Made by a program: the position numbers and the translations under genes. Shown here piece by piece: positions 35,686 through 53,309 of a stretch of 64,000 nt of DNA. Source of the stretch: Escherichia coli (GTDB lineage Bacteria > Pseudomonadota > Gammaproteobacteria > Enterobacterales > Enterobacteriaceae); assembly GCF_022846255.1 (NCBI RefSeq), contig NZ_AP025682.1; one strand, given 5' to 3'. The notes beneath the pieces are model-generated. The model was not told the origin of the DNA, did no database searches, and saw nothing but the letters and a program-made list of their open reading frames with translations. Every line of letters starts with the position of its first letter. Position 1 is the first letter of the stretch.

Positions 35686-37371
35686 ATGTTTAAAATTATG
35701 AATGCCCATAGTTTAGAGATGAGAAAAGAGTTAGGAGCATATTATACTCCAAGTGCTCTTAGTCAAGTGATGTCAGATTGGGCAATTAGAAGACCAACTG
35801 ATAAAATACTTGAGCCAAGTTTTGGAGGCTGTGGCTTTTTAGAAAGCTGTGAAAAGAGCCTCATGGAGATAGGCTGCATAAACCCAATGGAAAATTTATT
35901 TGGGGTTGATGTAGACCAAAAAGCCTTTGATACTCTCAAAAAAAAATATGGGCATTTATTAATAAAAAAACATTTCATTTTAAGTGATTTCATTAACGTA
36001 TTTCCAAAAGATTTTGGCATTGAAGATTTTGAGGTTATCATTGGGAACCCTCCTTATATCTCTATGCATAATATGAGTTATGAACAAAGGAAGTCCTGTG
36101 AAAAAGTTTTTGCTGACTCACCTTTTAAAACAAAAACATTAGGACGCAATGCAAGTCTTTGGGGGTTTTTCTTACTCCATGCATTAAGCTTCATTCGAGA
36201 AAATGGACGAATAGCGTGGGTATTACCGAGTAGTTTTTTAAATGCCTATTATGCGAAAGAGCTTATAAGAATTTACAAAAATCATTTTAACCATCTAAAA
36301 ATAATAAAGATAAATGAAAGACTTTTCAAAAATGAAGGTGCCGATGAAATGTCAGTACTTTTTTTATGCGATGAGTTTCACAGGACACCTATCAATAATG
36401 GATACGTTTCAATTGGATTTGCTGACACATTAAATGAACTAACCAGCATAATGACTGGAACTAAAGAAAACAAATTAAATAGCTCTGAAAATTACAAATA
36501 TAATATATTAGATATTGACACATTAAATGTGATATCGTCTATAACAGAACATAAGTACAGTTTAAAAATACAGGATATTGCTGATATAAAGATTGGGATG
36601 GTAACCGGCATGAACAACTTCTTTATATTGGATCAAAATCAAATTTTAAAACATAATTTAGACAATAAACATTTTAGACCAGTTATTTCACGATTTTCAC
36701 ATTTGAAGGGAATTCACCACACATTAAAAAGACATACGAAGTTAATTGCAGACAATAAAAAAGGATTGCTATTACACGTCAGTCCAGATGATTTATATGA
36801 AAAACATAGTCCGTTGAGAAAATATTTATCACAAGTTGATAGAAAAGAACGAGTCAAAAACCGCACATTCAAAAAACGAAAAAAGTGGTTTCAACCAGAT
36901 GATGGTATTTACCCAGACGCATTTTTTTCATATATGGTTCATGAGTTTCCCAGAATGATATTAAATAAAGGGAAAGTTAACTGCACTAACTCAATACATC
37001 GTATCTTTTTCAAAGATATAGCATCTAATAAATTAAAAAAAGCATGTTGCATATCTCTTTTATCAACATTTTCACAACTTTCTGCCGAACTTGAAGGTCG
37101 GTCATATGGCTCAGGTGTGCTAAAAATAGAGCCTACCGCAGGAAAGAACATATCATTCTTAATTAAAGATGATTTAATACACGAGTTAAGCAACTTAAGT
37201 AAAGAAATAGATCAATTGCTTTTAAATAATGAAACAAGCAATGCCACTGCTTTAGTTGATAAGTTTTTTGTTGATAAGGGACTAATTAGCTTAGATGAAT
37301 TGAAAAGTCTTAAAAAAGGGTTATTCAGATTAAGAAAAGATCGATATAAAGGGGTCAAAAATTATGAGTGA
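35686..37371 (+). CDS. N6-adenine DNA methyltransferase (Eco57I-like gamma-class) with C-terminal extension
   Basis: Motifs GAYYTP, ILEPSFGGCGFL (motif I-like) and IIGNPPYIS (motif IV, approx 36044-36060); 561 aa; first gene of a tightly overlapping four-gene operon. Confidence 0.8.
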   Translation: MFKIMNAHSLEMRKELGAYYTPSALSQVMSDWAIRRPTDKILEPSFGGCGFLESCEKSLMEIGCINPMENLFGVDVDQKAFDTLKKKYGHLLIKKHFILSDFINVFPKDFGIEDFEVIIGNPPYISMHNMSYEQRKSCEKVFADSPFKTKTLGRNASLWGFFLLHALSFIRENGRIAWVLPSSFLNAYYAKELIRIYKNHFNHLKIIKINERLFKNEGADEMSVLFLCDEFHRTPINNGYVSIGFADTLNELTSIMTGTKENKLNSSENYKYNILDIDTLNVISSITEHKYSLKIQDIADIKIGMVTGMNNFFILDQNQILKHNLDNKHFRPVISRFSHLKGIHHTLKRHTKLIADNKKGLLLHVSPDDLYEKHSPLRKYLSQVDRKERVKNRTFKKRKKWFQPDDGIYPDAFFSYMVHEFPRMILNKGKVNCTNSIHRIFFKDIASNKLKKACCISLLSTFSQLSAELEGRSYGSGVLKIEPTAGKNISFLIKDDLIHELSNLSKEIDQLLLNNETSNATALVDKFFVDKGLISLDELKSLKKGLFRLRKDRYKGVKNYE

Positions 37372-39673
37372 AGATATTCTTTTTTTGAAGGATAAGATGA
37401 AAGCCCTCCTGGATAATGAGGCTCTCGATTATGATAAAGTATTAGAAACAGCAGTAAAAATCACCGAAAAAGACAACAACAATATTAGATTTTCTGTAGA
37501 TGCGAATTTAGTTAGAAGATTAGGTGAGCAGTTAGTCGCTAAAAAAACTACTGCTGTCAGTGAATTGGTGAAAAATGCTTATGACGCAGATTCGACATTA
37601 GTAAATGTATATTTCGAATTGAACGAAGCAAATCCTCGAATAGTCATATTCGATGACGGCACAGGTATGTCAAAGGAAGATATTATCAATGGATTCATGC
37701 GAATAAGCACAAGTGAAAAAGAAGATAACTCTGTTTCAGAACGATATCAGAGACTAAGAGCAGGTAGAAAAGGTATTGGGCGTTTTTCTACACAGCGATT
37801 AGGAAATTATTTAAAAATAATTACCAAGCAAGAAAATGAAGAGTTAGGATATTTAATAGAAATTAACTGGCAGCAGTTTTCAAAAAAGAAAAATATATCC
37901 TTCATTGCTAACACTATCTCAAAAATCGATGTGGATTTCATTCATGGAACAAAAATAATAATAGAAGATCTGAATGATAAAGATTGGTCTGATGGGAACA
38001 TAAAAACGGCTTATAAATATATTAAGAGCATTATAAATATTGCCCCAAGCGAGACAGATCCAGGTTTCCAAGTAAAGTTCTATTATAAAAATGCCAATGG
38101 CTATGAATTAGTTGCAGATGAGAAAACTGAAATTTTTTCTGATAGTGATGCTCATATTACAGCAACACTTGAAAATGGAAATGCTGTAGTGAGAGTTAGC
38201 AGTGAAACCCTTGGCATAAAAAATGAAAGCATAGATGTATGGTATGATGAAAAAAATAACATACGAAAATTCTCACATATAAACTCTCCAGTAAAGCTTG
38301 ATGCATACTATTTCTCATTAGCAACAGTTAACTCCAGAAAACAAGCGGCATATTTACGTGAAAATGGCGGAATAAAAATCTATCGAAATGGATTCAAGGT
38401 TTCTCCTTATGGAGAGCAGTATGATGACTGGACGGCTCTTGATGACTCGGTTCGAAGGAGAAAGATATTACCCCCTCATGGTAATCAAAACTTCTTTGGA
38501 CACGTCAAAGTTGAAGACCTAAATGGAATAGACTTTGAAGAAACGTCCTCAAGGGAAGGTCTGATTCATACCGATGCCTTTCAAGAACTTCGCCTCTTTG
38601 TATATAAAGCACTGACGGCTGCGGTAATAAGAATTAGTGAAGCCAGAAATATAAAAATAAATCCAAATGACCGTAGCTATGTTAAAGAAACTAAACCAAC
38701 AATATCAGTCAAAGATAAATTAAATATTGTATCTGAAACGATAAGCTCGGTTAGTAAATTGGTAGATGCAGCAACATCTGTTGATGACGTTTCAAGTGAT
38801 GGTGTCATTAATAACATTGAAGATAAAAGTATAAGAAACAAAATTATTGAAGATCTCCATGAAGCCGCAGATGAGCTAAAACAAGCGAGTGTGATATCTC
38901 AATCTTTAATCGATGAAATTGAGCTTCTTAGAGTGCTTGGCGCTATGGGCCTTGCTATTGGTGAGTTTACACACGAAATAAATTTATCAATAACAAGTTT
39001 GAGTATTAACGTTCAAAACCTTAAACAGTCTAAATTATTAGAGGAAGATAGAGACTCTGCTCTAAATAGCCTTGAAAATAATATTGCAACATTAAAATCA
39101 TTTACTAAATTTTTTGACAGTACTATACGTGAGAATGTAAACAGAAATAAGAAAGTTATTGAGATAAGAGACTCTATTGAGCCATTTTATGAATCGATGA
39201 AACCAATAATAGAACGCAAAGGAATTCAGTTTGCAATACATTATGAAGGTTATGAACTTTTTACGAAGCCGATTCATGTTTCAGAGCTATATTCTGTATT
39301 TATAAATCTCTTTACGAATGCATATAAAGCAATACTTCGTTCTGGAACAAATCCACGAAAAATGTCTTTAACTGCGAAAAAAGATAGTGAAGATATAATT
39401 ATCCGATTCGAAGATAGCGGTGATGGAATTGAACCTGCAAATAGAGAAAGAGTTTTTGAGCCTTTCTATACAACAAGTACACCATCAGGACCTTTTGAAA
39501 GTGATGATTTATCATTAAAAGGAATGGGATTGGGGTTATCAATCGTACGTGATCTCGTTGAATCCATGTCTGCAGAAATATCTATAGTTGATGCATCCGA
39601 TGGTTTTACAACGTGCTTTGAGTTGAGAATTCCAAAAGCTGATGATAAGGAAATACCAGATGACATCTATTAA
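37364..39673 (+). CDS. Dual Bergerat-fold ATPase: N-terminal MutL/HSP90/MORC-like GHKL module plus C-terminal histidine-kinase core (HisKA-like H-box + HATPase_c)
   Basis: N-terminal motifs ELVKNAYDAD (approx 37562-37591), DDGTGMS, GRKGIGRF; C-terminal H-box GEFTHEINLSITSL (approx 38961-39000), N-box LFTNAYKAIL, G1 EDSGDGIE, F-box FEPFYTT, G2 GMGLGLSIV; no obvious TM segment; start overlaps MTase stop by 8 nt. Confidence 0.7.
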   Translation: MSEDILFLKDKMKALLDNEALDYDKVLETAVKITEKDNNNIRFSVDANLVRRLGEQLVAKKTTAVSELVKNAYDADSTLVNVYFELNEANPRIVIFDDGTGMSKEDIINGFMRISTSEKEDNSVSERYQRLRAGRKGIGRFSTQRLGNYLKIITKQENEELGYLIEINWQQFSKKKNISFIANTISKIDVDFIHGTKIIIEDLNDKDWSDGNIKTAYKYIKSIINIAPSETDPGFQVKFYYKNANGYELVADEKTEIFSDSDAHITATLENGNAVVRVSSETLGIKNESIDVWYDEKNNIRKFSHINSPVKLDAYYFSLATVNSRKQAAYLRENGGIKIYRNGFKVSPYGEQYDDWTALDDSVRRRKILPPHGNQNFFGHVKVEDLNGIDFEETSSREGLIHTDAFQELRLFVYKALTAAVIRISEARNIKINPNDRSYVKETKPTISVKDKLNIVSETISSVSKLVDAATSVDDVSSDGVINNIEDKSIRNKIIEDLHEAADELKQASVISQSLIDEIELLRVLGAMGLAIGEFTHEINLSITSLSINVQNLKQSKLLEEDRDSALNSLENNIATLKSFTKFFDSTIRENVNRNKKVIEIRDSIEPFYESMKPIIERKGIQFAIHYEGYELFTKPIHVSELYSVFINLFTNAYKAILRSGTNPRKMSLTAKKDSEDIIIRFEDSGDGIEPANRERVFEPFYTTSTPSGPFESDDLSLKGMGLGLSIVRDLVESMSAEISIVDASDGFTTCFELRIPKADDKEIPDDIY

Positions 39674-40763
39674 CCTACTTTATATCGATGATGATCAGCC
39701 TCAGCAAGTAAAGGGTTTAATTGAAGCAATAATCAGTAAAGCGAGTTTTGATTTAAATATAACTCATAAACCGCCGACGAAAATGAGTGAAATAGCCATA
39801 GAGTTGAGACAAGGTTATGATGGTATCATCATAGATCAAAAACTTGACAGCTTTGTTGAGGGAGTAGAACCAGTTGATTACTTTGGTGCCGCGTTAGCAC
39901 AAAATTTGCGAACACTCATGGCGGGTAAGTCAGATAATATATCTTATAAGCCAATAATTTTACTCTCTCTCGAAAGCTTATTAATTGAATATTATAATCC
40001 CGATTCAAGCTCGCATGATCTATTTGATTTAGTTTTGAGTAAAAGCATATTAGAACAACCAGAATTGTTAGAAAAAAAAGTTCACTTAATAAAATCTATT
40101 GTGAATGCTTACAAACGTGCACATTCGGAAGACTCGTTATATCAATTGCTTTCTCTGAGCAGTAATTATTCATTGCTTGATAAAAGATTTGAAATATATA
40201 TTTCTCAGTATGATAAAGATATACATAAGCTCGTCACATCCATACACTCCACACTTCTGAGAAGTAGTGGCATGTTAGTTTCTGAGATAACTTTGGCAAC
40301 CAGACTGGGTATTAATATTGAAGAATCGCCAGACTGGCACCAAGTAATTGGGCACCTTGAGGAATATAAATACAATGGCATATTCTCTGATTATTATAAA
40401 AGATGGTGGTGGGCAGATGTAGAGTTGTGGATAAATAAAAAGCTTAACTGCCCAATAATTAAAGGATTAACCTCAGAAAAAAGAGTGGAGATCATCAAAG
40501 AAAAACTTGGCTTAGAACGATTGATGCCAATTCATAGCGTACATCCAGGCCAAAGCACCAAGTTTTGGGTTAATTGTATCATCAGTAAAGAACCTCTTGA
40601 TACAATAGATGCTCTTCGTGCATCATCTATGGAATTAAAACCTTGGGAAGATGATAAATACCTTTCAATTAAAACAGTGTTAGAGAGACGGGCCGAAAAA
40701 TATAAAGTACATCCAGAAGATAGAACAAAATTGGATCGAATTCGGGCGAGGTTTAAATTATAA
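39642..40763 (+). CDS. Receiver (REC)-like domain protein with unassigned ~250-aa C-terminal domain
   Basis: CheY-like pattern: LLYIDDD (beta1, acidic pocket), GIIIDQKL (candidate phospho-acceptor Asp), KPIILLSLES (beta4 Ser); divergent REC, so call is tentative; overlaps kinase gene stop. Confidence 0.5.
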   Translation: MIRKYQMTSINLLYIDDDQPQQVKGLIEAIISKASFDLNITHKPPTKMSEIAIELRQGYDGIIIDQKLDSFVEGVEPVDYFGAALAQNLRTLMAGKSDNISYKPIILLSLESLLIEYYNPDSSSHDLFDLVLSKSILEQPELLEKKVHLIKSIVNAYKRAHSEDSLYQLLSLSSNYSLLDKRFEIYISQYDKDIHKLVTSIHSTLLRSSGMLVSEITLATRLGINIEESPDWHQVIGHLEEYKYNGIFSDYYKRWWWADVELWINKKLNCPIIKGLTSEKRVEIIKEKLGLERLMPIHSVHPGQSTKFWVNCIISKEPLDTIDALRASSMELKPWEDDKYLSIKTVLERRAEKYKVHPEDRTKLDRIRARFKL

Positions 40764-41506
40764 TGAACAATAATACAACTTTGTTAGACGATATGTGTAG
40801 GCTCAGGGACTTTTTATATGATAGCCGCATATGCCCAGATATTAATCCTCTCAACCGTTTAATCAGTAAACTTAATGCAAATCTCCACTCCGAAACAGGG
40901 GAGGACTTTGAATACTCTTTAGACGATTTAGTATTTTATCTTAGCGAAAAATCTGGAACAATTTGTCCGACCCAAATTACACCCAAAGAAAACCCTATTG
41001 AAATACATTTGGAACTTATATTAAAAAGTGAAGGCCCTTATGAATTTTCGAAGATTAAAGAACTTTCAGGGCAATTACGACTTAAAGCTGAGTGGATCAA
41101 TGACACAACAGAAAAAATTGAGATAAAAACATCACATAGTGCTTGGCATTTTGATTATCATGTTCCTCAAATGGGGGATGGCGTAAATTCATTTACTCAT
41201 CCTCAATTCCATTTACAAAATGGAGGAAACAGGCTGACTGATAATTTAAATGACTATGGAGAGTTAATGATTCTTGATGCTCCAAGACTACCTTTACCTC
41301 CTATGGATGTGATATTAGCCATTGACTTTATTATTTCAAATTTCTTTGGTTCTATTTGGCAACAAGCATTATGTGATTCAGAATACATTGATGTAGTTAA
41401 AAGAGCACAAAAAGCATGGTGGAAACCTTATTATGAAGGTATAAGTCAACACTGGTCTGGCAATGGCTCAGGAATATCCAATATCCTAATTCCAAACCTT
41501 CTGTAG
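40763..41506 (+). CDS. Hypothetical protein (247 aa), fourth gene of the operon; possible effector
   Basis: ATG overlaps preceding stop (ATAATG); His-rich segment HFDYHVPQMGDGVNSFTHPQFH; no confident motif. Confidence 0.6.
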   Translation: MNNNTTLLDDMCRLRDFLYDSRICPDINPLNRLISKLNANLHSETGEDFEYSLDDLVFYLSEKSGTICPTQITPKENPIEIHLELILKSEGPYEFSKIKELSGQLRLKAEWINDTTEKIEIKTSHSAWHFDYHVPQMGDGVNSFTHPQFHLQNGGNRLTDNLNDYGELMILDAPRLPLPPMDVILAIDFIISNFFGSIWQQALCDSEYIDVVKRAQKAWWKPYYEGISQHWSGNGSGISNILIPNLL

Positions 41507-41771
41507 TGTATCAAAATCTGTTAACCATCTCCAATTACGAATAGCAATATTTATATAAAACTAATTTTTTATTTTAAACAACTTCAGCAAGGGCTAACTC
41601 TCAGCATCTCCTTCGGTGATACTTTGAGTTGCTCCTTGTTTTTTCGCCCTTTGGTTGAAAAAATTAAAAGCAAAACCAACCCTATACATTGACTTTTTCA
41701 GCATCTATCATATAAATAAAATAAGCATAATGGACATGCTTATTTTACTTTACTATATGAAAGGAGTTCAT

Positions 41772-42185
41772 ATGAATGATAGGAATCATACTTTTAATAA
41801 GTTCGAGCCATTCAGAAGTTGTAGCTATGAAAATTTTACTTCTGCTAAAACACTCTCCCAGCAGACACGTTCTCATTGTATTAGTATCAGATTAAATGAT
41901 GCCGAGTTATCTTACGTTGATGGCTTACGAGAAGATCTCAACCGTGCTGTTTGGATACGTATGTCAGCATTGAATCGTCTCCCTTCCAAAATTCCTGAAA
42001 TAAATCTAATTGTCTGGAAAGACCTTGCCAAAGCATCTCAGAATCTGAATAACCTCGTTCAGCATCTCAACACTAAATCACACGATAGTCCTTTTACTAT
42101 CACCGAAATTTATACGGTACAAAAAAGAATAAAAGCACTAAGAGATGCCCTTCTGTCAGCAAATCGATCTGTCAGTGATAAATAA
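41772..42185 (+). CDS. MobC-like mobilization accessory protein
   Basis: Strong RBS aaggag 5 nt upstream of ATG 41772; small basic protein with ribbon-helix-helix-like segment (CISIRLNDAELSYVDGLRED); stop overlaps relaxase start (TAATG). Confidence 0.55.
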   Translation: MNDRNHTFNKFEPFRSCSYENFTSAKTLSQQTRSHCISIRLNDAELSYVDGLREDLNRAVWIRMSALNRLPSKIPEINLIVWKDLAKASQNLNNLVQHLNTKSHDSPFTITEIYTVQKRIKALRDALLSANRSVSDK

Positions 42186-43372
42186 TGAAAGGGATGCAAA
42201 AAATCCGCAGAGGAAAGAGTTTTGCTGGTGTCGTCCTCTATGCGTTAAAGCCCGGTTCTCATCATAAAAAAGACCCTATCGTGATCGGTGGAAATATAAC
42301 GATAGTTGGCAATGCCGCTAAAGATCTGATCGCTGAATTTGATAGCACCAAACAGCTTCGCCCTGACGTGCAAAAGGCTGTTTGGCACAACTCGCTTCGC
42401 TTACCTAAAGGTGAATCACTAACGGCTAAACAGTGGTCTGAAATAGCAGATGATTACATGTCCCGCATGGGCTTCTCTGAAACGCATCTCAGATGCTACG
42501 TCCTACATGACGACGAAGATGGCCAGCACATCCATATCATCGCCAGCAGAGTGTCTCTTGATGCCGGAAAGCTCTACCTCGGCAGGAATGAGAACCTGGC
42601 AAGCACGAGAATAATTCAGCAACTTGAAAGAAATTACAATCTGACAAGAACCAAAGGGCCAGGAGCTAAAGCATCTACATCTTCTCTTTCCTCTAAACCG
42701 AAACATAAAAAATCACGTAATGAGGCTATGTTAGAGGAGAGAACTGGTGAACCATGCCCTAAATCCATCATCCAAAGGGCTATAGATTCGATAACATTAA
42801 ATCCTATAGCAATTGATGACTTCGTTGAAAAGCTGAATAGCATAGGGATTACGGCGAAAAGCAATATTTCTTCAACTGGCAAGATGAATGGATTTTCCTT
42901 TGAATGCAAAGGTGTTGTGTTCAAAGCTTCCCAGCTTGGCAAGAAGTATAGTTGGAAGAACCTGGAATCAATGATTTCAATGAATTACAACTCACACATT
43001 GGTGATGAAAAACCTGTCATCCCTGAACCTGCTGCCCATCGCAGCAACGAAGCTGTCATACCTATAGTGGAAGACTATTCTGATGAAAAGATTTACCCTG
43101 AGATAAGGGTACCCTTACCAAGACCTGACACAGCGCCCACAAAACCTACAAGCATGACAATGCGTTGGATCGCAACCATACCTTATCTTGTGAGTGTTAT
43201 TAGCGCACTTAAAACGATGCGTATCCCCTTTCTAAAGGCGTTCAATGGCCCAAGGAAGTTCTTTTCCGTGTCCATGATTCACCTGTCCTCTGTAAGCCTG
43301 AAACAGACCAAAACGAATAATTTCAAACCAAAAAGTTCCCACCAAAAGGCCCACAAGCCCCTTCTCCCCTGA
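42185..43372 (+). CDS. Mobilization relaxase (MobA/VirD2-like)
   Basis: Relaxase histidine triad region HDDEDGQHIHIIASRV (HxH motif), N-terminal nickase-like domain; coupled to the MobC-like gene. Confidence 0.65.
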   Translation: MKGMQKIRRGKSFAGVVLYALKPGSHHKKDPIVIGGNITIVGNAAKDLIAEFDSTKQLRPDVQKAVWHNSLRLPKGESLTAKQWSEIADDYMSRMGFSETHLRCYVLHDDEDGQHIHIIASRVSLDAGKLYLGRNENLASTRIIQQLERNYNLTRTKGPGAKASTSSLSSKPKHKKSRNEAMLEERTGEPCPKSIIQRAIDSITLNPIAIDDFVEKLNSIGITAKSNISSTGKMNGFSFECKGVVFKASQLGKKYSWKNLESMISMNYNSHIGDEKPVIPEPAAHRSNEAVIPIVEDYSDEKIYPEIRVPLPRPDTAPTKPTSMTMRWIATIPYLVSVISALKTMRIPFLKAFNGPRKFFSVSMIHLSSVSLKQTKTNNFKPKSSHQKAHKPLLP

Positions 43373-43580
43373 TTTCTCCACAGATAAACGATCGTTATAA
43401 TCGATCGATTTATTTATATTGATAGTCAATAACAATCAATAGGTAAATAATCGATCGGTACAAGCAATTTGCTATGTCCTTAGAAGTGTTCAAAATGTAC
43501 TTTCATGCATAAATCGGATAATAGGTTGATTTTACTAGCCTATTTTTCTATCCACGTATCGAACATGCAGGGACTGAAGT

Positions 43581-44171
43581 ATGAGATATCTCATGATGAA
43601 GCGTGTAATGTTAGCAATCCTTCTTCCGTTTATTGTTGGATGTTTATTTGGTGCTAAAGCATTATCAGAGTATTGGGTTGTGTGGTTTTTTGTTTGTGCA
43701 ATGTTGATGATCACAGCCTGGGGCGTGTGGTTAAAAAATAAAAACAGAGGTTCCAGCTTCAGCTACCTGAATGATAATGAAGATGGTGTATTTATCTACA
43801 AATTTCATAATCAAGAGATGCGTTTAGATAAAGCCAAAAAAGAGCTTTATTTAAAAGATGGGTTAAACGAAAAAACCTACACTTTTTCCGATGTTGAAAG
43901 CTGGGAATATAAAATTAGCACAGGTGGTCAGATCCTCACTTCAGGTCTTAACCCTACAACTAACTTGATTAACAATAAGATTCTTGGTGAAAACATTAAT
44001 GACACCGGCTTCTTTATCAAAGTTAAAGACATCAGAAACCCTGAGTGGCATATTCGATTCTTCCCTCAAGAAGGATCTTATAAAGATCAGAGGGGATTAA
44101 TTAGCTTAAAAAAACAGATGATGCAGTGGATGACCGTTTTTGACTTAATCGTAAATGCTGATACAAAGTAA
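43581..44171 (+). CDS. Hypothetical inner-membrane protein (two predicted TM helices)
   Basis: N-terminal hydrophobic segments (VMLAILLPFIVGCLFGA; WVVWFFVCAMLMITAWGVWL) then soluble domain; function unknown. Confidence 0.6.
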   Translation: MRYLMMKRVMLAILLPFIVGCLFGAKALSEYWVVWFFVCAMLMITAWGVWLKNKNRGSSFSYLNDNEDGVFIYKFHNQEMRLDKAKKELYLKDGLNEKTYTFSDVESWEYKISTGGQILTSGLNPTTNLINNKILGENINDTGFFIKVKDIRNPEWHIRFFPQEGSYKDQRGLISLKKQMMQWMTVFDLIVNADTK

Positions 44172-44182
44172 GGAAAACAAGA

Positions 44183-44473
44183 ATGAAAAAAACCATGCTA
44201 CTATTATTAGCTTCAATGTCGCTGACAGGTTGCAACAGTGAACCATCCGATGCAGATATTTCAAAAGCCATGCAGAGCTTTATGAGTGAGATGCATGGTA
44301 CCCTGAACTCGTCTAAAAAACTTGCGTGTAAAGATATAGAGAGTGATGGCAGTTATCTCTGCTCTGTAGAGTTCGATGCTAAACTTCCAATCGTGGGCCA
44401 TAGAGAATCGACGCTAGAATTAAAGTTTATTAAATCCGATGACTCCTGGAAAGCAATGGCTCCATCTAAATAA
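44183..44473 (+). CDS. Small lipoprotein (96 aa)
   Basis: Signal peptide with lipobox (LLLASMSLTGC); 11 nt downstream of the membrane protein gene. Confidence 0.6.
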   Translation: MKKTMLLLLASMSLTGCNSEPSDADISKAMQSFMSEMHGTLNSSKKLACKDIESDGSYLCSVEFDAKLPIVGHRESTLELKFIKSDDSWKAMAPSK

Positions 44474-44566
44474 ACTTAATTATATTTGACAATAGAAAAA
44501 TAGTACGTCATAGATAGTAAATTGATAACAACCAGTGGGTTGAGCCACTGGCTGTTATCCCAATGG

Positions 44567-44644
44567 TTAATACACGGATGTACTAACCACCATTAAAAGG
44601 ATAAACAACATCACCTTTAATGCACGGGAGCGTTTTTTAGACAT
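44567..44644 (-). CDS. Unannotated 25-aa hydrophobic peptide (MSKKRSRALKVMLFILLMVVSTSVY); type I toxin-like small ORF
   Basis: Minus-strand ATG with GGAG 6 nt upstream; basic N-terminus then a single hydrophobic helix; a 14-bp imperfect hairpin (approx 44524-44558) lies just downstream. Below the ORF-track length cutoff. Confidence 0.3.
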   Translation of the reverse strand: MSKKRSRALKVMLFILLMVVSTSVY

Positions 44645-44730
44645 ACGCCACTCCTTCTTTTTCATCATCAACCTTATTGTTGGTGATGTTGCCTCTTTGG
44701 GCTGATGCAGATTATCATTTTAGAATACTA

Positions 44731-44756
44731 AAAGCATCCTTTCGGATGCTTTTTTT
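44731..44756. terminator. Bidirectional intrinsic terminator
   Basis: aaagcatcc-tttc-ggatgcttt hairpin flanked by an A-run upstream and T-run downstream, between convergent/adjacent transcription units. Confidence 0.6.
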
Positions 44757-44850: not shown

Positions 44851-45273
44851 CTACAGTCCATATTTTTTCCTTTTATCCTTCATCAATAATTCTCTTTTTA
44901 GGGTAGAAGCCTCATGTTTCCTTCTCTCATTAATATAGACTTTTTCGGTTCTACTACCATTGCTCACAATGAAATTGATAAGTGAAGAGCATACGTTTTT
45001 CATACGCTCTTTATCGAGCATGTCATTTTCAATATTATTGATATTGCAGTAATAAGAAAGTAGTAAAAAATTCAACACTACTTCCCTGTTTGAGAACGTT
45101 AGTTTTTCTATTTCAGGCTGGTATTTAATGTAGAACCCGGCACAAAACAGGTATGATTGTTCGATAATTTGTTGCTCTGAGAAGTCTGATTCAGAGAGTT
45201 TATCAACGAATCGATCAAGTAGAAGAAGATACCTTTCCATCAAATGAATATTTATTTTTTCCATAACATGCAT
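44851..45273 (-). CDS. Hypothetical protein (140 aa)
   Basis: ORF in AT-rich island cargo downstream of the recombinase operon; no motif recognised. Confidence 0.5.
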   Translation of the reverse strand: MHVMEKINIHLMERYLLLLDRFVDKLSESDFSEQQIIEQSYLFCAGFYIKYQPEIEKLTFSNREVVLNFLLLSYYCNINNIENDMLDKERMKNVCSSLINFIVSNGSRTEKVYINERRKHEASTLKRELLMKDKRKKYGL

Positions 45274-45357
45274 CCTTGCAATTTATTTTGCCATCCTGAC
45301 AATTAAATAAATACCATAATTATTAATCACGTCAATAGTTAAAACCTATCTATTTTA

Positions 45358-45756
45358 TTAAAGGTATTTTGCAGGTAACGGATTATTAAGTTCTTCAATC
45401 GTTATTTGTTTAAGGTGAGCATTATAAAGCCATACTTTGAACTGCTCTAAATAGCGTTCATTTAATGCCTTCAAAGCCTCATTTTCTGCTTCAAGTCTTC
45501 TAATTCGTTGAGAAGCCACTTTTAAATTAGCAGGTTTTACAGTATGTATTGCACCAGATTTGATAGTGGCCTTTTTCACACTGAAGCTTTCTGCAATCCT
45601 TACATGACTACTTAAGGATTGTCTTGATGGTCTTTTCCCAATAATCCTTACTAACCTGTCGCACAAAGCATCCCAGGTTAGTTTTTCATCTATAGACCAT
45701 GTGTTAATAACATCTACAATCTTCTTCTCATGATAACCATTTATATGCTTAGCCAT
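45358..45756 (-). CDS. Small basic coiled-coil protein (132 aa), accessory gene of the recombinase operon
   Basis: Starts 1 nt after the stop of the 543-aa recombinase; heptad segment RIRRLEAENEALKALNERYLEQ. Confidence 0.55.
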   Translation of the reverse strand: MAKHINGYHEKKIVDVINTWSIDEKLTWDALCDRLVRIIGKRPSRQSLSSHVRIAESFSVKKATIKSGAIHTVKPANLKVASQRIRRLEAENEALKALNERYLEQFKVWLYNAHLKQITIEELNNPLPAKYL

Positions 45757-47388
45757 TTATTCTCCTTTTTTTATTCTCTTATGGAATTCATACCATCTAT
45801 CAGCATTTATGTTCCCATCATTTTTATCATACAGTGTTCTTTTTGAAATTTTATCGTGAATTTTTGAAATCGTTTCGTTATCTAAACCAGAATTCTCAAT
45901 CGGATAATGTTCACACGGCTTAAACGCATATGAGTGCTTGCAGTAGCCATGTTTTGATACCAGTACTGCACCACTACTAAGTGAATCAAACTCATTAAGA
46001 ACCACCACTGGAATATCCTTTATTCTGTGCTCATTAACACACACTGATAACTTTTGTTCTCTTATTGCTTTAGACATTTGAAGATGCGATCTGTGGTCAT
46101 AAGAAAAATTTTGAGAAATAAGCTTACGTCCAGACCAGCGAGCAATACTAAACTCATCCATACCATTTATTTGAGCAAAAGTGTTGAGAAGATGCCTCAG
46201 TTGATGTGTTCTTAGCAAATATGGGCTACCATCATCATTTATATAACCATGTCTTTTAAATACATTTAAATATCCTTTTATATAATCAGAATCAACGATA
46301 TCAGTTTTAAAAAAATTCGTTGTAGGTCTGAATAACTTATCTAACATTTCCTTTTTATTTTGATTTAACTGTCCTTCAGTTAACAAGCAAAGCGCATTAG
46401 AATATTTGATTTTCTTCTCTCTATCATACCAAAAGAGATCTGGAGGTATATTTTCTTTAAGGGTTCCCATCGTTGAATTAGAGTAATTCTTTTGAATTTC
46501 AGCAGCCAATAATCTCGCTTGACTTGATAATTCTTTTAATCTGCTAATAGCCTTTTTTGCTACAGGTATCATTAAAGTTGGAATCCATTTTATATTGCCT
46601 TCATACCCTTTTGCTGAAAAAAATCTTAAACCGTATCTTTGAATGCCCTTTCCATCACATTCTGTAATTTCACAATCCACTGGCAAAGCTAAAATTTCCG
46701 ATATCCTACTCGGTGCACACATAAGTAAAGCAAGCACAGATGTAGTAAATATATCTCTTGACGATAATTGTTCATCCCGCTTTGAAAAAATCTCAGCAAT
46801 CGCAATAACTGATTTGATATCAGGCAATCTAGAATGGCCTTCCAGTGAAGAATCATAACCAGTCCAAGACTGAGTAATCCTATACCTAATTGGACTTATC
46901 CAAAATAAATAAGATGAGTTAGTCATCCTATTATCATTTAAAAATGAACTCAATTTCTCAAGTTCTTTCCCAATAGCAAATGCATGTGCTTTAGAATACT
47001 TTTCAGAGGCTATCCTTATGCATTCATCAAAGATTGAATTGTTGCAATAGTTTACATTAGCTTCCATATTGATTTTAAGTAAAACGAATTCGACAATCTT
47101 CAACATTGATAATGTTGAGTGTTTCGTCTTAGATTTATTGAATGAATGCACATGCAACATATATGCTTTAGCAAAATTAATAAAGCTATCATCTAAGCAT
47201 TCTTTGCTGTTTAGGTTGTTTTTTGAGTTAAACTTAGTAAACCTATATAAACCTTTCCATTTATTGCTTTCCCAAGAAGTTGTTAAATTATTATTAGAAA
47301 TAGTACTCTTACAAAACTCGATGAACTTAATAACATTATCGTGAGGGTTGTTTTTATTGCTTGGTTCAAAAATAAATATATTGTTCAT
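45757..47388 (-). CDS. Tyrosine recombinase (543 aa), third of three tandem recombinases
   Basis: Catalytic-region motifs PSRISEIL (box I Arg), HQLRHLLNT (HxxR), downstream Tyr region; 4-nt overlap with the upstream recombinase gene. Confidence 0.65.
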   Translation of the reverse strand: MNNIFIFEPSNKNNPHDNVIKFIEFCKSTISNNNLTTSWESNKWKGLYRFTKFNSKNNLNSKECLDDSFINFAKAYMLHVHSFNKSKTKHSTLSMLKIVEFVLLKINMEANVNYCNNSIFDECIRIASEKYSKAHAFAIGKELEKLSSFLNDNRMTNSSYLFWISPIRYRITQSWTGYDSSLEGHSRLPDIKSVIAIAEIFSKRDEQLSSRDIFTTSVLALLMCAPSRISEILALPVDCEITECDGKGIQRYGLRFFSAKGYEGNIKWIPTLMIPVAKKAISRLKELSSQARLLAAEIQKNYSNSTMGTLKENIPPDLFWYDREKKIKYSNALCLLTEGQLNQNKKEMLDKLFRPTTNFFKTDIVDSDYIKGYLNVFKRHGYINDDGSPYLLRTHQLRHLLNTFAQINGMDEFSIARWSGRKLISQNFSYDHRSHLQMSKAIREQKLSVCVNEHRIKDIPVVVLNEFDSLSSGAVLVSKHGYCKHSYAFKPCEHYPIENSGLDNETISKIHDKISKRTLYDKNDGNINADRWYEFHKRIKKGE

Positions 47389-48710
47389 AATGCTCTCCAG
47401 GGATTGAATTTTTTACACGTTAAGCATTTCAAATCCTCTTTCGTATCTTCTAATAAGAAAAATGCATCTGAAACATACTTGATAAAAAAGTTCTTGTTTT
47501 CTTCAATCTCTATGCCCATAAGTATATTAGATAAGGGGTTAAAAAACGCACTTAGTCTCTTATCGATGTCATAAACGTTGTCAGGATTGTTTTTTATATA
47601 TATCATAGAAGAGTTTACTGATTTATGATCTAAGGCTTTAGCAATCACCTCAATTGAGGCTCCTTCGTTAGCCAGTCGACTTCCTAACGTATATCTGAAT
47701 CTTCTAGCATTAAGTTCTATATAGCTGTTAGTCCTTTCTGACCTAACATCGAATTTTGACGGAAAGTGTTTTAATAGTTTTGACATAACTGAATTTTTCA
47801 TATGGAAAAAATCTGTTGTTAAATCAGATAAAAAATCCTCAATCCTTTTTGTTTCCGTAATCTTATCTAAATTCATGAAGATTGGTAATTCGCCTCTATA
47901 GTTATTAATCCCAACACTGAATTTATCTTCAACAAACGCCTGATTTTGATTAATTAGCATTGATAAACTGTCATATAAGAACGGTTCTATCATTACCATA
48001 TTAAATTCTTTTCTGAAACATTTTCTTTGTTTTACTTTTGGTACATTCAAAAAGCACCCTCTCTCATTTTTAATGAGATCTTTAGCTTTTAGAGATATCA
48101 ATTGTAATGGCCTTCTTCCTGTTATTGCCAGCAAAAGGATATAACAATACAAAAAGCATTGAATTTTCTTCTCATGATAAAATTTTCCAACGGCGTTAAT
48201 AATGTTATTGAATTCCGTTTCAGTTAAAGGTCCTTTATTTGGATCTCGTCTTTTAACTGCATCTCCTGTTTGGTTTGGAATGATTTTTATTTTCTCCAGC
48301 ATTCTAATGGCAGTCGCATCTACCCCAGGGTAATTGAGATTTTTCCATTTAGTGATGAAAGCCTTAATTGAGTTTAGTTTGTAGTTTCTTTCTGAACCTA
48401 AATAAACATTCAATTGATATATTGCTTTGTCATCAATAGTATCGATGGTCATTGCACCAAACCACTTATAAAATAGATTGTTAATATTTTGTATATAAAA
48501 AGAACTATATTCAGACGCATAGTAAGCTAATGTTTTTAAGTAGCTAAGTTTCATTTTTGTAGGCATTCTATCTACAACTTTATGAGGGTATACGCAGTTT
48601 TCTTTATCAAGTTGCCATTTCTTATCTGACAGTTTGAAACTATATCTATTCATCTTAGCAAAAAAAATTTGCTCACTTTCAATACATTTTATTTCCACAT
48701 TAAACCCCAC
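47385..48710 (-). CDS. Tyrosine recombinase (441 aa), second of three
   Basis: Motifs ITGRRPLQLISLK (box I Arg), RFRYTLGSRL and LDHKSVNSSMIY (box II); overlaps neighbours at both ends. Confidence 0.65.
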   Translation of the reverse strand: MGFNVEIKCIESEQIFFAKMNRYSFKLSDKKWQLDKENCVYPHKVVDRMPTKMKLSYLKTLAYYASEYSSFYIQNINNLFYKWFGAMTIDTIDDKAIYQLNVYLGSERNYKLNSIKAFITKWKNLNYPGVDATAIRMLEKIKIIPNQTGDAVKRRDPNKGPLTETEFNNIINAVGKFYHEKKIQCFLYCYILLLAITGRRPLQLISLKAKDLIKNERGCFLNVPKVKQRKCFRKEFNMVMIEPFLYDSLSMLINQNQAFVEDKFSVGINNYRGELPIFMNLDKITETKRIEDFLSDLTTDFFHMKNSVMSKLLKHFPSKFDVRSERTNSYIELNARRFRYTLGSRLANEGASIEVIAKALDHKSVNSSMIYIKNNPDNVYDIDKRLSAFFNPLSNILMGIEIEENKNFFIKYVSDAFFLLEDTKEDLKCLTCKKFNPWRAL

Positions 48711-49905
48711 TAATTATTTTACTTACTGATTTATAGACCTTTAGGACGACATCCTTCTCTTGTTGGGATATATATTTAAAATTGTATCTATTACACATGA
48801 TTGACTCCTTTGACCAACCCATTAGATAATTCCTTAAATCTTTCCTTCTACTATATTCTAATTCAGCGCCTTCAATTCCTTTAGAATACATATAATTCCA
48901 AGAGTGCCTTAACCTATGACCTGAAAGATTATATAGCTTTGGACTTGCTCGTTTCAGTGTTGATATCACCTTCTCATAAGCTGAAATGCTTAAGGGTTCT
49001 CCTGCGTTTTTTCCGGTGCAATGAGCCACGAATAAGAAATTATGTTTTTTCCTTTTTGTCATTTTTTCCCTGCTATTGCTTATGTAATCAAAAATTTCAC
49101 TGGCTAACTCATCAGATAACGGAATAACCCTTTCTCCAGTCTTTACTAATGGCTGATAAGCTCTTCCATCTTCTTTTGAATCATGTCTTCTGACTACACT
49201 TAAAGTGTTGTCTCTGAGATCAAAATCATCTATTTTAAGATTGAGCAACTCTCCAGCCCTTAAACCTAAATTTAAGAGCAAGGTAAATATTAGTCTGTTC
49301 CTGACCTGTACTTCCTTATGAAAAGGGTTTTCAATCCCACCAATTTCCAATAGACGGAAAAGCACATTGATCTCTTCTTCATTTAACGATTTTTCAGATA
49401 TTTCATTCATATTCAATGAACTGTTTCTTGGAATATGTGCTCTGATACTTTCAATAAATACTTCTACTTCATACTTTGCATGAATCCCCTTTGACGAATG
49501 AACTAATCCACATAACCACTTAAGGTAGCGTGAAAAAACGTGTACTCTATAACTAAAGGTTCTCTTTGCAATAAACCTATTACTTGCTGATTTTATATTT
49601 ATAATTTTTTGTCTATCGAATCTTTGTTTCGCATATCTTACCAGATCATCTATTTCTGCAACGCTGAGATACTTTTTAAGCTCAATTCTCTCAACTATAT
49701 TAATTTTCCTACTATCTAAGAAATTACTAAAAATTAGTAAGTTAGTTGCAACTATTTCCATAGTTGAGGCGGTTGCGCCTCTATTTCTTATGTCTGTAGT
49801 AAGAAATAGATTTTGATAGTAAGCTGGTAGATTACTATTTTTATCAAGGATCAGGCATCCTCGCTCCCCATTACTCATGATGAATTTCTTTACTTTATAT
49901 CCCAT
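48700..49905 (-). CDS. Tyrosine recombinase (401 aa), first of three
   Basis: Motifs LGLRAGELLNLKIDD (box I Arg), GHRLRHSW (HxxR), LMGWSKESIMCNRY (box II Tyr). Confidence 0.65.
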   Translation of the reverse strand: MGYKVKKFIMSNGERGCLILDKNSNLPAYYQNLFLTTDIRNRGATASTMEIVATNLLIFSNFLDSRKINIVERIELKKYLSVAEIDDLVRYAKQRFDRQKIINIKSASNRFIAKRTFSYRVHVFSRYLKWLCGLVHSSKGIHAKYEVEVFIESIRAHIPRNSSLNMNEISEKSLNEEEINVLFRLLEIGGIENPFHKEVQVRNRLIFTLLLNLGLRAGELLNLKIDDFDLRDNTLSVVRRHDSKEDGRAYQPLVKTGERVIPLSDELASEIFDYISNSREKMTKRKKHNFLFVAHCTGKNAGEPLSISAYEKVISTLKRASPKLYNLSGHRLRHSWNYMYSKGIEGAELEYSRRKDLRNYLMGWSKESIMCNRYNFKYISQQEKDVVLKVYKSVSKIISGV

Positions 49906-51592: not shown

Positions 51593-52840
51593 TTAGTTAT
51601 TAAAATCAAAAGGTGCAATTCTTCTCTTAGTTGTTTCATCAAGATAATCAGCCCACCACTGCAACATCAACCTACGCTCATCCAAATGCTCAGCTTTATG
51701 AATGTATGCGGCACGAACGGAGTTCCGCTCCTGATGGCTCATCTGCCTCTCAACAGCATCTCTCGACCACTTTCCTGACTCGATCAAAGCACTACAAGCC
51801 ATCGCTCTAAAACCATGCCCACATACCTCAACGGTTGTGTCATAACCCATCGCCCTGAGCGCCTTGTTCACTGTGTTTTCGCTCATAGGTTTTCTGAAAT
51901 CATGATCGCCAATGAATACCAGGTCGCATTCGCCGCTGATTTCTCTGATGGCTTTTAGAAGTTCTAAAGCCTGACGACTTAACGGCACGAGGTGTGGGGT
52001 CTTCATTTTTGAACCTCGATGGGAATGTTTGACTCCTGGCAATAGCTCGCGTTCTCCAGGGATAGTCCACATCGCATTTTCAAAGTCGATCTCCGACCAT
52101 CTTGCGAATCGGAGTTCAATGGAACGGATAAAAATGAGCAATGTCAGCTTCACAGCTAATTTAGTAAGTTTCCTACCTTTAAAGCTTTCAATGCGCTCTA
52201 AAAGCTCTGAGAACCTATCAAATGGTAAGGCTGGTCTGTGGGTTCGTTTCGCAACTGTAATTGCCCCAGACATATCTTGTGCTGGATTGTAGTCAATTAA
52301 GCCATTCTGGACGGCATATCGCATTACTGCCGTAGTCCTTTGCTGTAGTCGGGAAGCAACTTCCAGTCGTCCAGAAGCTTCAACGGCCTTGATAGGGGCG
52401 ATAAGATCTCTGGTATTAAGCTCGGATATTTTTCTTTTACCAATAGCAGTAAAGAGACCATCCTCCATGCTTTTTAGAACTCTTTCGCTGTGAGAATCTG
52501 ACCATTTCCTTTTACAGGCAGTATGCCAGTCCCTTGCAACAGCTTCGAATGTCAGGGCTTCGCTTTGCTCAATCTTATCTGCTTTTTTCTTTTCAGAAGG
52601 ATCGATACCATCAGATACCAACTTTTTGGCTTCATCTCGCTTCCTGCGGGCTTCACCAAGAGAGACCATTGGATAAACACCCAATGCTAAAACTTTCTGT
52701 TTGCCCCCGAAACGGTATTGGAGTCGCCAGTACTTTGAACCATTGGGGTTGATCAGCAGGTGCATACCCTGCCCATCTGTGAGTTTGAAAGGTTTATCGG
52801 AGGGCTTTGTTGTTCGAACTTTGATATCAGTGAGTGCCAT
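51593..52840 (-). CDS. P4-type tyrosine integrase (intact)
   Basis: 415 aa; N-terminal GSKYWRLQYRFGGKQ and C-terminal catalytic region (HGFRAMACSAL, conserved Tyr region AAYIHKAE); starts 190 bp from the tRNA 3-prime end. Confidence 0.85.
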   Translation of the reverse strand: MALTDIKVRTTKPSDKPFKLTDGQGMHLLINPNGSKYWRLQYRFGGKQKVLALGVYPMVSLGEARRKRDEAKKLVSDGIDPSEKKKADKIEQSEALTFEAVARDWHTACKRKWSDSHSERVLKSMEDGLFTAIGKRKISELNTRDLIAPIKAVEASGRLEVASRLQQRTTAVMRYAVQNGLIDYNPAQDMSGAITVAKRTHRPALPFDRFSELLERIESFKGRKLTKLAVKLTLLIFIRSIELRFARWSEIDFENAMWTIPGERELLPGVKHSHRGSKMKTPHLVPLSRQALELLKAIREISGECDLVFIGDHDFRKPMSENTVNKALRAMGYDTTVEVCGHGFRAMACSALIESGKWSRDAVERQMSHQERNSVRAAYIHKAEHLDERRLMLQWWADYLDETTKRRIAPFDFNN

Positions 52841-53029
52841 CAGTTGATACCTCCATTGTTGGTACCAAAATCAATCGAACCGAGAATACCATCAGTTATA
52901 CCATCATCGGTTGGTATATGTTCAAGGAATTGAGTAGACGTGAACAGACTAAGCCAAGTCAGAAACTCGCTTAACTTACTGTTTTTTTGGACTAAAGTAG
53001 ACGTTAGTAGACTTGAAAAAAGCTTTGTA

Positions 53030-53114
53030 TGGTGCCGAAGGCCGGACTCGAACCGGCACGTATTTCTACGGTTGATTTTGAATCAACTGCGTCTACCGAT
53101 TTCGCCACTTCGGC
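53030..53114 (-). tRNA. leuX: tRNA-Leu (leuX-like, 85 nt with long variable arm)
   Basis: Acceptor stem GCCGAAG/CUUCGGC, T-arm GGTTCGAGTCC and 3-prime CCA read on the minus strand; sits between ahr and a P4-type integrase as at the K-12 leuX locus. Confidence 0.9.
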
Positions 53115-53309
53115 ACTGAAGAGGTATGCGGAAAACGTTGTGAATTATACCTGTCACGCGCCACCATGCAAGCGCCAGCTTGCTCGCACCTCGCTAAGTG
53201 CTGAAATTTTCAGCATTGCATACCGCGATGTGTAACCTTTGTCACACTCCAGGCACCCCGCCCTGCCATGCTCTACACTTCCCAGACCACACCAGAGAAG
53301 GACCAAAAA

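Follow-up and report, generated by a model that had tools for sequence, protein, structure and literature searches.

A probable Dam/OxyR-type switch ahead of an exchangeable envelope gene cassette on an enterobacterial mobilizable island

The stretch of DNA analysed here comprises 64,000 nucleotides of an Escherichia coli chromosome (contig NZ_AP025682.1, assembly GCF_022846255.1) and is called the window below. Our subject is the 208-bp leader between a relaxase gene and a two-gene operon, which codes for an inner-membrane protein with a DUF4755 domain and a lipoprotein of a family that we call LP1. It appears that the leader, from 43385 to 43500, is a phase-variation switch of the gtr type, in which OxyR and Dam would oppose each other, and that it drives a cassette of envelope genes that can be swapped; we consider this reading to be probably correct. 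The leader carries three half-sites in the same register as those of the P22 gtr and agn43 regions, its three Dam sites are invariant among the relatives, and the genes that follow it differ from island to island. The half-sites were scored against the OxyR half-site consensus ATAGnTnnnAnCTAT, with 10 scored positions, as quoted in PMC2909390. The features of the locus are as follows.

42185-43372, + strand: gene of a MobA/VirD2-type relaxase (PF03432, E=1.6e-26), with its stop codon 17 bp before GATC1
43391-43405, no strand assigned: half-site A, ATCGTTATAATCGAT, 8/10, with GATC1 at 43390-43393 and GATC2 at 43403-43406
43422-43436, no strand assigned: half-site B, ATAGTCAATAACAAT, 8/10, no GATC, inside the palindrome TGATAG-N7-CAATCA at 43420-43438
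43454-43468, no strand assigned: half-site C, ATCGGTACAAGCAAT, 8/10, with GATC3 at 43453-43456 and no fourth GATC
43469-43496, + strand: predicted sigma-70 promoter, -35 TTGCTA (43469-43474), 16-bp spacer, -10 CAAAAT (43491-43496), from alignments read by eye
43518-43544, + strand: conserved block TAATAGGTTGATTTTACTAGCCTATTT in the predicted 5' untranslated region, kept in leaders of the DUF4755 type and the 221-aa type and not in others
43581-44171, + strand: DUF4755 gene, 196-aa inner-membrane protein with an N-terminal two-helix hairpin and a DUF4755 domain of PH-like fold
44183-44473, + strand: lipoprotein gene, 96 aa, family LP1, with the signature C-[ND]-S-E-P-S-x-x-[DE]-I and two conserved cysteines

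Architecture of the leader

The hexamer CGATCG occurs three times in the leader, at 43389-43394, 43402-43407 and 43452-43457. The whole window has 12 copies, as compared to 12.2 expected from shuffled sequences, and the probability that three of the 12 fall inside 69 bp is about 7.5e-4 (200,000 random placements). An earlier reading of the window, made from the sequence only, had proposed a search for the repeat elsewhere in the island; the three in the leader are the only copies between 14153 and 58691, in a stretch of 34.5% GC, and the only ones in the AT-rich part of the island. Three GATCs in 64 bp are unremarkable alone, since the window has 237 of them, and the significance of the repeats comes instead from the clustering of the hexamer, the architecture of the half-sites and the conservation.

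The sequence-only reading had described three copies of a unit resembling taatcgatcg, and the strings that it quoted (aacgatcgtt, ataatcgatcgat and aataatcgatcgg) are all present. The unit itself is not conserved, however. The relatives mostly have TGATCG at the first site and sometimes CGATCT or AGATCA at the second, and only the GATC is invariant. Nor are the copies direct repeats: the first two are both arms of one palindrome, ATCG-N7-CGAT, the third is the left arm of another, and a further palindrome between copies 2 and 3 had been missed, so that the repeats resolve into three half-sites of 15 bp. The suggestion that they are repeated binding sites for a regulator still stands with this changed anatomy, as the sites are conserved, palindromic and fit the consensus of a known regulator.

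The consensus of an OxyR half-site is ATAG-N7-CTAT (PMC2909390). The arrangement GATC-N9-GATC can be read as G[ATCG-N7-CGAT]C, which is an OxyR half-site with one symmetric change that creates two Dam sites. Both mismatches of half-site A to the consensus are the ones making its GATCs, and the same is seen in half-site A of P22 gtr, ATCGGTAACAACGAT. The distance from start to start is 31 bp between A and B and 32 bp between B and C. When the window was scanned, 39 half-sites reached at least 8/10, and the sole triple at a spacing of 30-34 bp was the one at 43391/43422/43454; such a triple was found in none of 300 simulated 64-kb sequences of island composition. The same scan gave scores of 8, 10 and 8 at a spacing of 32/32 for P22 gtr, and two 8/10 half-sites 32 bp apart for agn43 of K-12.

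The GATCs lie in the outer half-sites, A (43390 and 43403) and C (43453), and none in B, a placement shared by all 23 distinct relatives. The leader does not have the four GATCs of the gtr type, as the would-be position of the fourth (43466-43469) reads AATT and no relative has one in register. In a MAFFT alignment, the region from P22 and the leaders of the islands coincide in position at GATC1, GATC2, ATAG-N7-CTATC and GATC3.

It was also possible to observe OxyR-like sites outside the leader. A perfect 10/10 half-site, ATAGTTAAAACCTAT, is found at 45335-45349, 62 bp upstream of the gene of a 140-aa protein (44851-45273, - strand), with weaker sites 32 and 63 bp off (6/10 and 7/10) and no GATC. 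It recurs in the related loci L005, L010 and L012 with different spacer bases, and may tie this neighbouring backbone gene to the same regulator. Loci L012 and L013 have a second OxyR-like triple at 5512-5591, within the relaxase gene at its 3' end and about 300 bp upstream of the switch. It scores 9/9/8 at a spacing of 33/32, with no GATC noted, was seen in these two loci only and may be due to chance.

Conservation and distribution

Through homologues of the DUF4755 protein or of the lipoprotein we found loci that share one gene order: a small gene, the relaxase gene, the leader, a DUF4755 gene, often a lipoprotein gene, and then convergent genes for a 140-aa, a 132-aa and a 543-aa protein and recombinases. 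We examined 37 related loci, and the conservation set consists of 23 distinct leaders. About ten enterobacterial genera are represented (Escherichia, Klebsiella, Citrobacter, Pluralibacter, Pantoea, Pectobacterium, Brenneria, Yersinia, Buttiauxella and Erwinia), and the leader can be aligned across all of them, with flanking proteins down to 31-45% identity. The mean pairwise identity of the core is 75%, as compared to 58% for the 84 bp upstream and 64% downstream.

GATC1, GATC2 and GATC3 are invariant in all 23 leaders. Half-site B has arms of exactly ATAG and CTAT in 19 of the 23 and scores 8-10/10 in the relatives; its 7-nt spacer is free to vary and it never has a GATC. In half-site C, ATCGATCGGTACAA is at least 90% conserved, also at the positions that are N in the OxyR consensus. 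The departure from the consensus that makes a GATC, ATcG/CgAT, is kept in both A and C, and in the right arm of A a position of the OxyR consensus varies (TCGATC, CAGATC, CCGATC) while the GATC is constant. Together with the GATCs at sites 1-3, the features that do not change are TGATAG-N7-CTATCA, ATCGATCGGTACAA at site 3, and two short blocks further on. Read from these alignments, the pattern is evidence for selection acting on the Dam sites themselves.

The relaxase gene is directly before the switch in 35 of the 37 loci. The two exceptions, L016 and L021, have the downstream genes with no recognisable relaxase or switch, and are probably truncated short contigs. Among 5426 complete E. coli genomes the leader is present in 129 (2.4%, O55:H7 strains included), in several chromosomal regions and always chromosomal, intergenic and after the relaxase gene. 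Among the carriers are TUM11353 (NZ_CP134380), EC28 (NZ_CP049101), FDAARGOS_144 (NZ_CP014111) and the O55:H7 strain RM12579 (NC_017656). In a commoner E. coli version of the island, that of EC28 and 85 other genomes, the relaxase gene is again followed by the switch, with the half-sites ATCGTTTATACCGAT, ATAGCCAGCATCTAT and ATCGGTACAAGTGAT. For a survey of the cassettes we used a sample of leader-bearing genomes and five IMG/VR contigs found by the pattern of B and C. The triple was there in every surveyed locus that includes the start of the leader, with GATCs at -1, +12 and +61/62 relative to A, and the IMG/VR contigs have the same layout, as read from the printed sequences. Homologues of DUF4755 or LP1 outside this backbone (in distant genomes, on ColE1-like plasmids, and LP1 linked to hha on IncI and IncF plasmids) have no such site. 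What carries the predicted switch is the backbone of an integrative mobilizable island of the GInt-like kind, and not the genes that it would drive.

A conserved, palindrome-rich non-coding stretch adjoining a relaxase gene could also be the origin of transfer (oriT) of the island or a single-strand initiation site, with the palindromes as hairpins for a relaxosome or primosome, and palindrome A does fold at -9 to -15 kcal/mol (z-score -2.3 to -3.7). The leader is found downstream of the relaxase gene, however, and the canonical upstream position, 41583-41771, has its own conserved inverted repeat followed by TTTTTTCGCCCTTTGGTTG. Furthermore, the arms of B are conserved with no compensatory change, the spacers vary as they do in protein operators, and the register with gtr and agn43 would have to be a coincidence. 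This role for the leader is highly unlikely, and we rejected it as there is a better candidate upstream of the relaxase operon.

Another explanation is that copies 1 and 2 form the intrinsic terminator of the relaxase operon (CGATCG-N7-CGATCG and then ATTTATTTAT), copy 3 being incidental. The terminator scan does show a hairpin here, 17 bp after the relaxase stop codon and with a folding energy of -11.1 kcal/mol, and, being a palindrome, it appears on both strands. Although this hairpin does exist, its T-rich tail is not kept in the relatives (ATTAGTCAC in L010, AATACACC in L033), and a terminator would leave half-sites B and C, the invariant GATC3 and the fixed spacing unexplained. It is very improbable that this is the function of the repeats, and the candidate was set aside.

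The cassette genes

The two genes are as the earlier reading had them, one for a protein with two transmembrane helices and one for a lipoprotein of 96 aa. The first matches DUF4755 (PF15947) over residues 62-188 with 125.6 bits against a cut-off of 27 (E=1.6e-36); RefSeq places its start at 43593 in a near-identical strain. The DUF4755 domain is predicted to be cytoplasmic because positive residues flank the hairpin on both sides. Some DUF4755 proteins, of 275-294 aa, in Pectobacterium and relatives (L003/P0003, P0016, P0019) have the N-terminal hairpin tandemly duplicated, and with four helices, an even number, the C-terminal domain stays on the same side of the membrane. The LP1 gene starts after a gap of 11 bp, with AAGGAA before this second ATG. 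Its product has a signal peptide ending in the lipobox L-T-G-C, MKKTMLLLLASMSLTGC, in agreement with the lipoprotein pattern [LVI][ASTVI][GAS]C, and G16 and C17 are invariant in 12 homologues. The mature lipoprotein is predicted to be periplasmic, at the outer membrane.

The inner-membrane proteins found behind the switch in different loci are of at least three unrelated kinds, and the lipoproteins of two families. A DUF4755 gene stands by itself or is joined by LP1, by a BamE-like lipoprotein or by the two together; a protein of 217-233 aa stands alone or with the BamE-like lipoprotein; a 92-aa zinc-ribbon protein with two transmembrane helices is accompanied by the BamE-like lipoprotein and LP1; and LP1 can be alone. 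The 221-aa protein behind the switch of the EC28 type belongs to no Pfam family and has no profile similarity to DUF4755 (hhalign probability 0.6%). There is no lipoprotein gene with DUF4755 in L010-L014 and L040, there is LP1 and no DUF4755 in L038, L039, L041, L043, L045 and L046, and in seven loci DUF4755 is paired with the unrelated BamE-like lipoprotein. The latter has a weak match to BamE (PF04355, about 24 bits) and a strong one to the phage family phrog_3135 (E=3.5e-23, no known function), with tblastn matches in 7 phage records. For LP1 the PHROG matches are mostly N-terminal, and the best is to phrog_14435, of unknown function (E=8.7e-5, residues 3-57).

The layout of the gene pair had been likened to toxin/immunity modules, and one could imagine either protein as the toxin of such a module or of a toxin/antitoxin pair. 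The genes are not an obligate pair, which leaves this idea unsupported: L010-L014 and L040 have DUF4755 only, L038 and L043 have LP1 only, and the partners are exchanged for unrelated families. The predicted compartments also differ, with the DUF4755 domain in the cytoplasm and the lipoprotein in the periplasm, and no match to toxin/antitoxin or defence families was found. We give this alternative hardly any weight. The DUF4755 protein, tethered to the membrane with a cytoplasmic PH-like domain, and the outer-membrane lipoprotein probably act independently.

A search of solved structures by sequence gave no match for DUF4755 or LP1. Members of both families were also seen on plasmids. DUF4755 is found on ColE1-like plasmids of 5-7 kb that encode Rop, in Enterobacter, Klebsiella and Serratia, and on one of them, pER0-E3 (L047, 5.7 kb), it is one of five annotated genes. 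A 118-aa homologue of LP1 (hhalign 98.5%) lies beside hha and near hok at 5950-6306 in L048 (pUMNK88_Hly, IncI1) and at 5950-6306 in L049 (an IncF plasmid of E. albertii), and on the IncI plasmid it is placed between traY and the trb genes with no switch upstream. Neither the plasmid contexts of DUF4755 nor those of LP1 reveal a function. The literature searched has no mention of DUF4755, and no paper describing this locus was found in the literature on OxyR, GATC, relaxases and the island, which tells of the silence of that literature only.

Predicted promoter and proposed model of the switch

The predicted promoter at 43469-43496 has its -35 and -10 at the same columns in both sub-groups of leaders, as TTGCTA-16-CAAAAT here and as TTTACT-17-GAGAAT in the other. 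Transcription is predicted to start near 43503, and with this start half-site C would extend from about -49 to -35 with its centre at about -42, and GATC3 would be at -50, near the place of GATC3 in gtr, -46. The only + strand promoter that the consensus scanner gives in the leader is TAGTCA-17-AATAAT at 43423-43451, and its -10 is not conserved in L008 (ACCATC). The conserved block at 43518-43544 could be a stem-loop, with a z-score of only -1.15, or a second promoter (TTGATT-17-TATCCA). Nothing between 41400 and 45400 reaches the gathering score of an Rfam family.

The three half-sites are about three helical turns apart and would be just upstream of a sigma-70 promoter. By analogy with gtr, agn43 and opvAB, the likely regulator is the OxyR of the host in competition with Dam. 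If the mechanism of gtr (PMC2909390) and opvAB (PMC4856963) applies, an OxyR tetramer would occupy either A and B or B and C. The outer half-site covered by OxyR would escape methylation, and the uncovered one would be methylated by Dam and then be resistant to OxyR. Each state would in this way copy itself after replication, which would make the switch bistable and give heritable ON and OFF lineages for the operon 43581-44473. Occupancy of B and C would be the likelier candidate for the ON state, because half-site C is centred near -42 of the predicted start and abuts the -35. In this it resembles OBS_D of opvAB, a site that the ON state requires and whose centre is at -43, directly before the -35 (PMC4856963). 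We find it likely that OxyR binds the leader in a way that is sensitive to Dam. With somewhat less confidence, we think it probable that the expression of the cassette varies by phase.

The most probable role of the cassette is a change of the envelope, in a part of the population, that excludes incoming phages or conjugative DNA, and an exclusion function as such is proposed here tentatively. A role in envelope conflict is suggested by the unrelated inner-membrane proteins and lipoproteins that mix at a fixed slot, by the adjoining relaxase gene and the defence cargo, and by the phage homologues of one of the lipoprotein families. The same features disfavour a core role in mobilization.

Several observations weigh against this picture. 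The half-sites are just 8/10 here, and A or C is 7/10 in many relatives. GATC4 of gtr is absent, and as a result the occupancy of B and C would have a single guarding Dam site. OxyR does not account for the near-invariant GGTACAA in C, at positions where its consensus has N, so that another factor may bind there, and since ATAG-N7-CTAT fits the generic LysR-type motif T-N11-A, a different LysR-type protein could be the reader. The promoter at 43469-43496 is a prediction that the consensus scanner does not report, and there is a second candidate downstream at 43526-43554. On the side of the cassette, the defence models of PADLOC-DB have no match for DUF4755, LP1, the 221-aa family or the BamE-like lipoprotein. 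In Pfam, NCBIfam and PHROG (E up to 0.1) none of the exclusion families TraS, TraT, TrbK, Eex and MbeD/Exc was found to include them, with no match to those families beyond the signal peptide. The contexts of the distant DUF4755 members are short contigs or uninformative neighbours.

Conceivably, the palindromes serve as operators of a regulator that is not OxyR, encoded by the element or another host protein of the LysR type, and the GATCs only sense methylation with no heritable phase variation. SeqA could for instance be the reader, and expression would be transient, from DNA left hemimethylated just after it has entered by conjugation or has been replicated. The element moves as single-stranded DNA through its own relaxase, so that its methylation state changes on entry, and conservation goes further than the OxyR consensus both at GGTACAA in C and at the TG/CA flanks of B. 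SeqA can bind paired GATCs at a spacing of 13 bp, which is the spacing between GATC1 and GATC2. It is also an ancillary factor at opvAB (PMC4856963). Against this, the backbone has no conserved regulator of the LysR type and no other obvious DNA-binding one, and sites that stay invariant across genera, beside a cargo that changes from locus to locus, indicate a conserved host factor. Furthermore, half-site A is identical at 13 of 15 positions to an OxyR half-site of agn43 (flu), ATCGTTTATATCGAT, and the spacing is that found in gtr. We consider a different regulator unlikely, and the switch operated by OxyR and Dam remains the reading that we prefer.

The island

The region is an island adjoining tRNA-Leu, according to the annotation of strain TUM11353. 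The segment 41600-44900 is 99.7% identical to this strain, and the whole segment is present in no other of the 5426 complete E. coli genomes with which it was compared; the locus has no plasmid match in PLSDB. Along the + strand, variable cargo (a methylase, a kinase-like gene and a type I restriction system) is followed by the small gene at 41772-42185, the relaxase gene, the leader, the DUF4755 gene and the lipoprotein gene. The genes of the 140-aa, the 132-aa and a 543-aa protein annotated as DNA-binding, and of two tyrosine recombinases, converge on these from the - strand. Two further features lie outside the switch and its operon.

41583-41771, + strand: conserved non-coding block upstream of the small gene 41772-42185, probable oriT and operon promoter
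44730-44756, no strand assigned: terminator-like hairpin AAAAGCATCC-TTTC-GGATGCTTTTTTT between the convergent operon and the 140-aa gene, read from the sequence and unlisted by the terminator scanner

The block at 41583-41771 is 78% identical to L008 of Pectobacterium over 218 bp. It has an inverted repeat, AAGGGCTAACTC...GAGTT..CCTT, with a loop that differs between genera, then TTTTTTCGCCCTTTGGTTG, and then TTGAC(T/A)-N17-TATAA(A/G). The promoter is near consensus here, TTGACT-N17-TATAAA; a 15-bp inverted repeat comes next, at 41714-41750. The block is probably the oriT and the promoter of the mobilization genes, and its function as oriT is suggested by its position only.

The recombination module is on the - strand at 45358-49905. 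It consists of the two tyrosine recombinases (47385-49905), the 543-aa protein (45757-47388), which has no Pfam match and is annotated as DNA-binding only, and the 132-aa protein (45358-45756). Past it, at 51594-53115, there are an AlpA-type helix-turn-helix gene, a DUF6387 gene, another integrase and tRNA-Leu. The order of the genes in the module, with the cargo after it, matches ginABCD of the GInt islands, which were described in Pseudomonas (PMC5385486); this is a likeness in gene order. GInt islands as described have no relaxase module (PMC5385486), whereas the enterobacterial family has a conserved mobilization module and the switch. In every relative these stand directly after the ginD-like gene, a combination that is absent from the GInt paper (PMC5385486).

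The cargo at 35686-41506 is a cluster of four genes with overlapping starts and stops, an N-6 DNA methylase, an annotated sensor histidine kinase and two hypotheticals, and it looks like an uncharacterised defence-type operon. The cargo at this position is different in every relative, with for example E2/JAB genes, a reverse transcriptase or Ser/Thr kinases.

We also observed an unannotated open reading frame of 25 codons, MSKKRSRALKVMLFILLMVVSTSVY, on the - strand at 44570-44644. It has the Shine-Dalgarno sequence AAGGAG 6 nt upstream and is followed by a hairpin with a 15-bp stem (44524-44559), and its product is first basic and then hydrophobic, resembling a type I toxin or a small membrane protein. 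It is kept in L009 of Klebsiella indica (96%) and in L002-L004 (70% over 23 aa), and the 371-bp spacer that carries it is in one complete E. coli genome only.

Significance

A handful of phase-variation systems that depend on Dam are known (pap-type fimbriae, agn43, gtr, opvAB, std and sci1), each of them found locus by locus. The present candidate was found from sequence alone, and the mobilizable island to which it is attached has defence cargo as well. Should it function as proposed, the carriers would be phenotypically mixed for an envelope trait, which would affect phage susceptibility, conjugation and possibly the interaction with a host. DUF4755, LP1, the BamE-like lipoproteins and the 221-aa and 92-aa proteins would then be marked as probable envelope-conflict genes with a ready genetic handle.

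A wider interpretation, which we regard as possible and rather doubtful, is that the backbone of these widespread enterobacterial islands contains a portable epigenetic expression socket. Any envelope cassette inserted into it would be expressed in heritable ON and OFF lineages, the carriers would hedge between a costly envelope that excludes phages and conjugation and a normal one, and the state would be reset at each entry into a new cell, when the DNA of the element is unmethylated or hemimethylated. A conjugatively mobilized element would then be seen to carry a Dam/OxyR switch for the first time, and DUF4755 would gain its first function.

Comparison with known systems

Exclusion systems include TraS, in the inner membrane, and TraT, an outer-membrane lipoprotein, of the F plasmid, and among phages the lipoproteins Cor and Llp and the inner-membrane proteins Imm and SieA. 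As in the TraS/TraT type, the genes here code for an inner-membrane protein and an outer-membrane lipoprotein and adjoin DNA-transfer genes on a mobile element, and components that occur independently are what one would expect if each blocks a different step. The island differs from those systems in that it encodes no mating-pair apparatus that would have to be excluded, and there is no sequence similarity to TraS/TraT, Cor/Llp or Imm/SieA.

The number of GATCs in agn43 is three, as here, and they are within OxyR half-sites 32 bp apart. The two half-sites of agn43 form a single OxyR site, which acts as a repressor site located at the transcription start or after it. The leader of the island differs from this single-site type, as it has three half-sites, which would be occupied alternatively, upstream of a predicted promoter.

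At opvAB of Salmonella, the alternative occupancy by OxyR of half-sites with and without GATC leads to opposite methylation patterns (PMC4856963). The operon is horizontally acquired, its products are inner-membrane proteins and its promoter-proximal half-site is near -43, all of which resembles the present locus (PMC4856963). It has four half-sites and four GATCs, however, at a spacing of 46/19/46 nt, and its products are unrelated to those described here (PMC4856963).

The closest likeness is with gtr, the switch for O-antigen glucosylation of phage P22 and Salmonella. The GATCs of gtr are at -110, -97, -46 and -33, in pairs inside half-sites A and C with none in B, and the spacing fits reduced OxyR (PMC2909390). 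As offsets these are 0, +13, +64 and +77, as compared to 0, +13 and +63 in the island. The fourth GATC, in the -35 region, is missing here, and half-site C abuts the predicted -35 (centre about -42), where that of gtr overlaps it (about -38). The driven genes are unrelated to gtrABC, the element is a mobilizable island and not a phage, and the island switch is a prediction from sequence. A BLAST search of phage genomes with the leader gave chance matches only; the similarity to gtr is architectural and too short to be found in this way. Both regions have three OxyR half-sites about 32 bp from start to start upstream of a promoter, which is a predicted one here, and half-site B of the leader has its counterpart in ATAGATAAAAACTAT of gtr. 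They also have in common a pair of GATCs 13 bp apart in A, none in B, a GATC in C and the arm variant ATcG/CgAT. Finally, both are carried on a mobile element, beside its recombination module.

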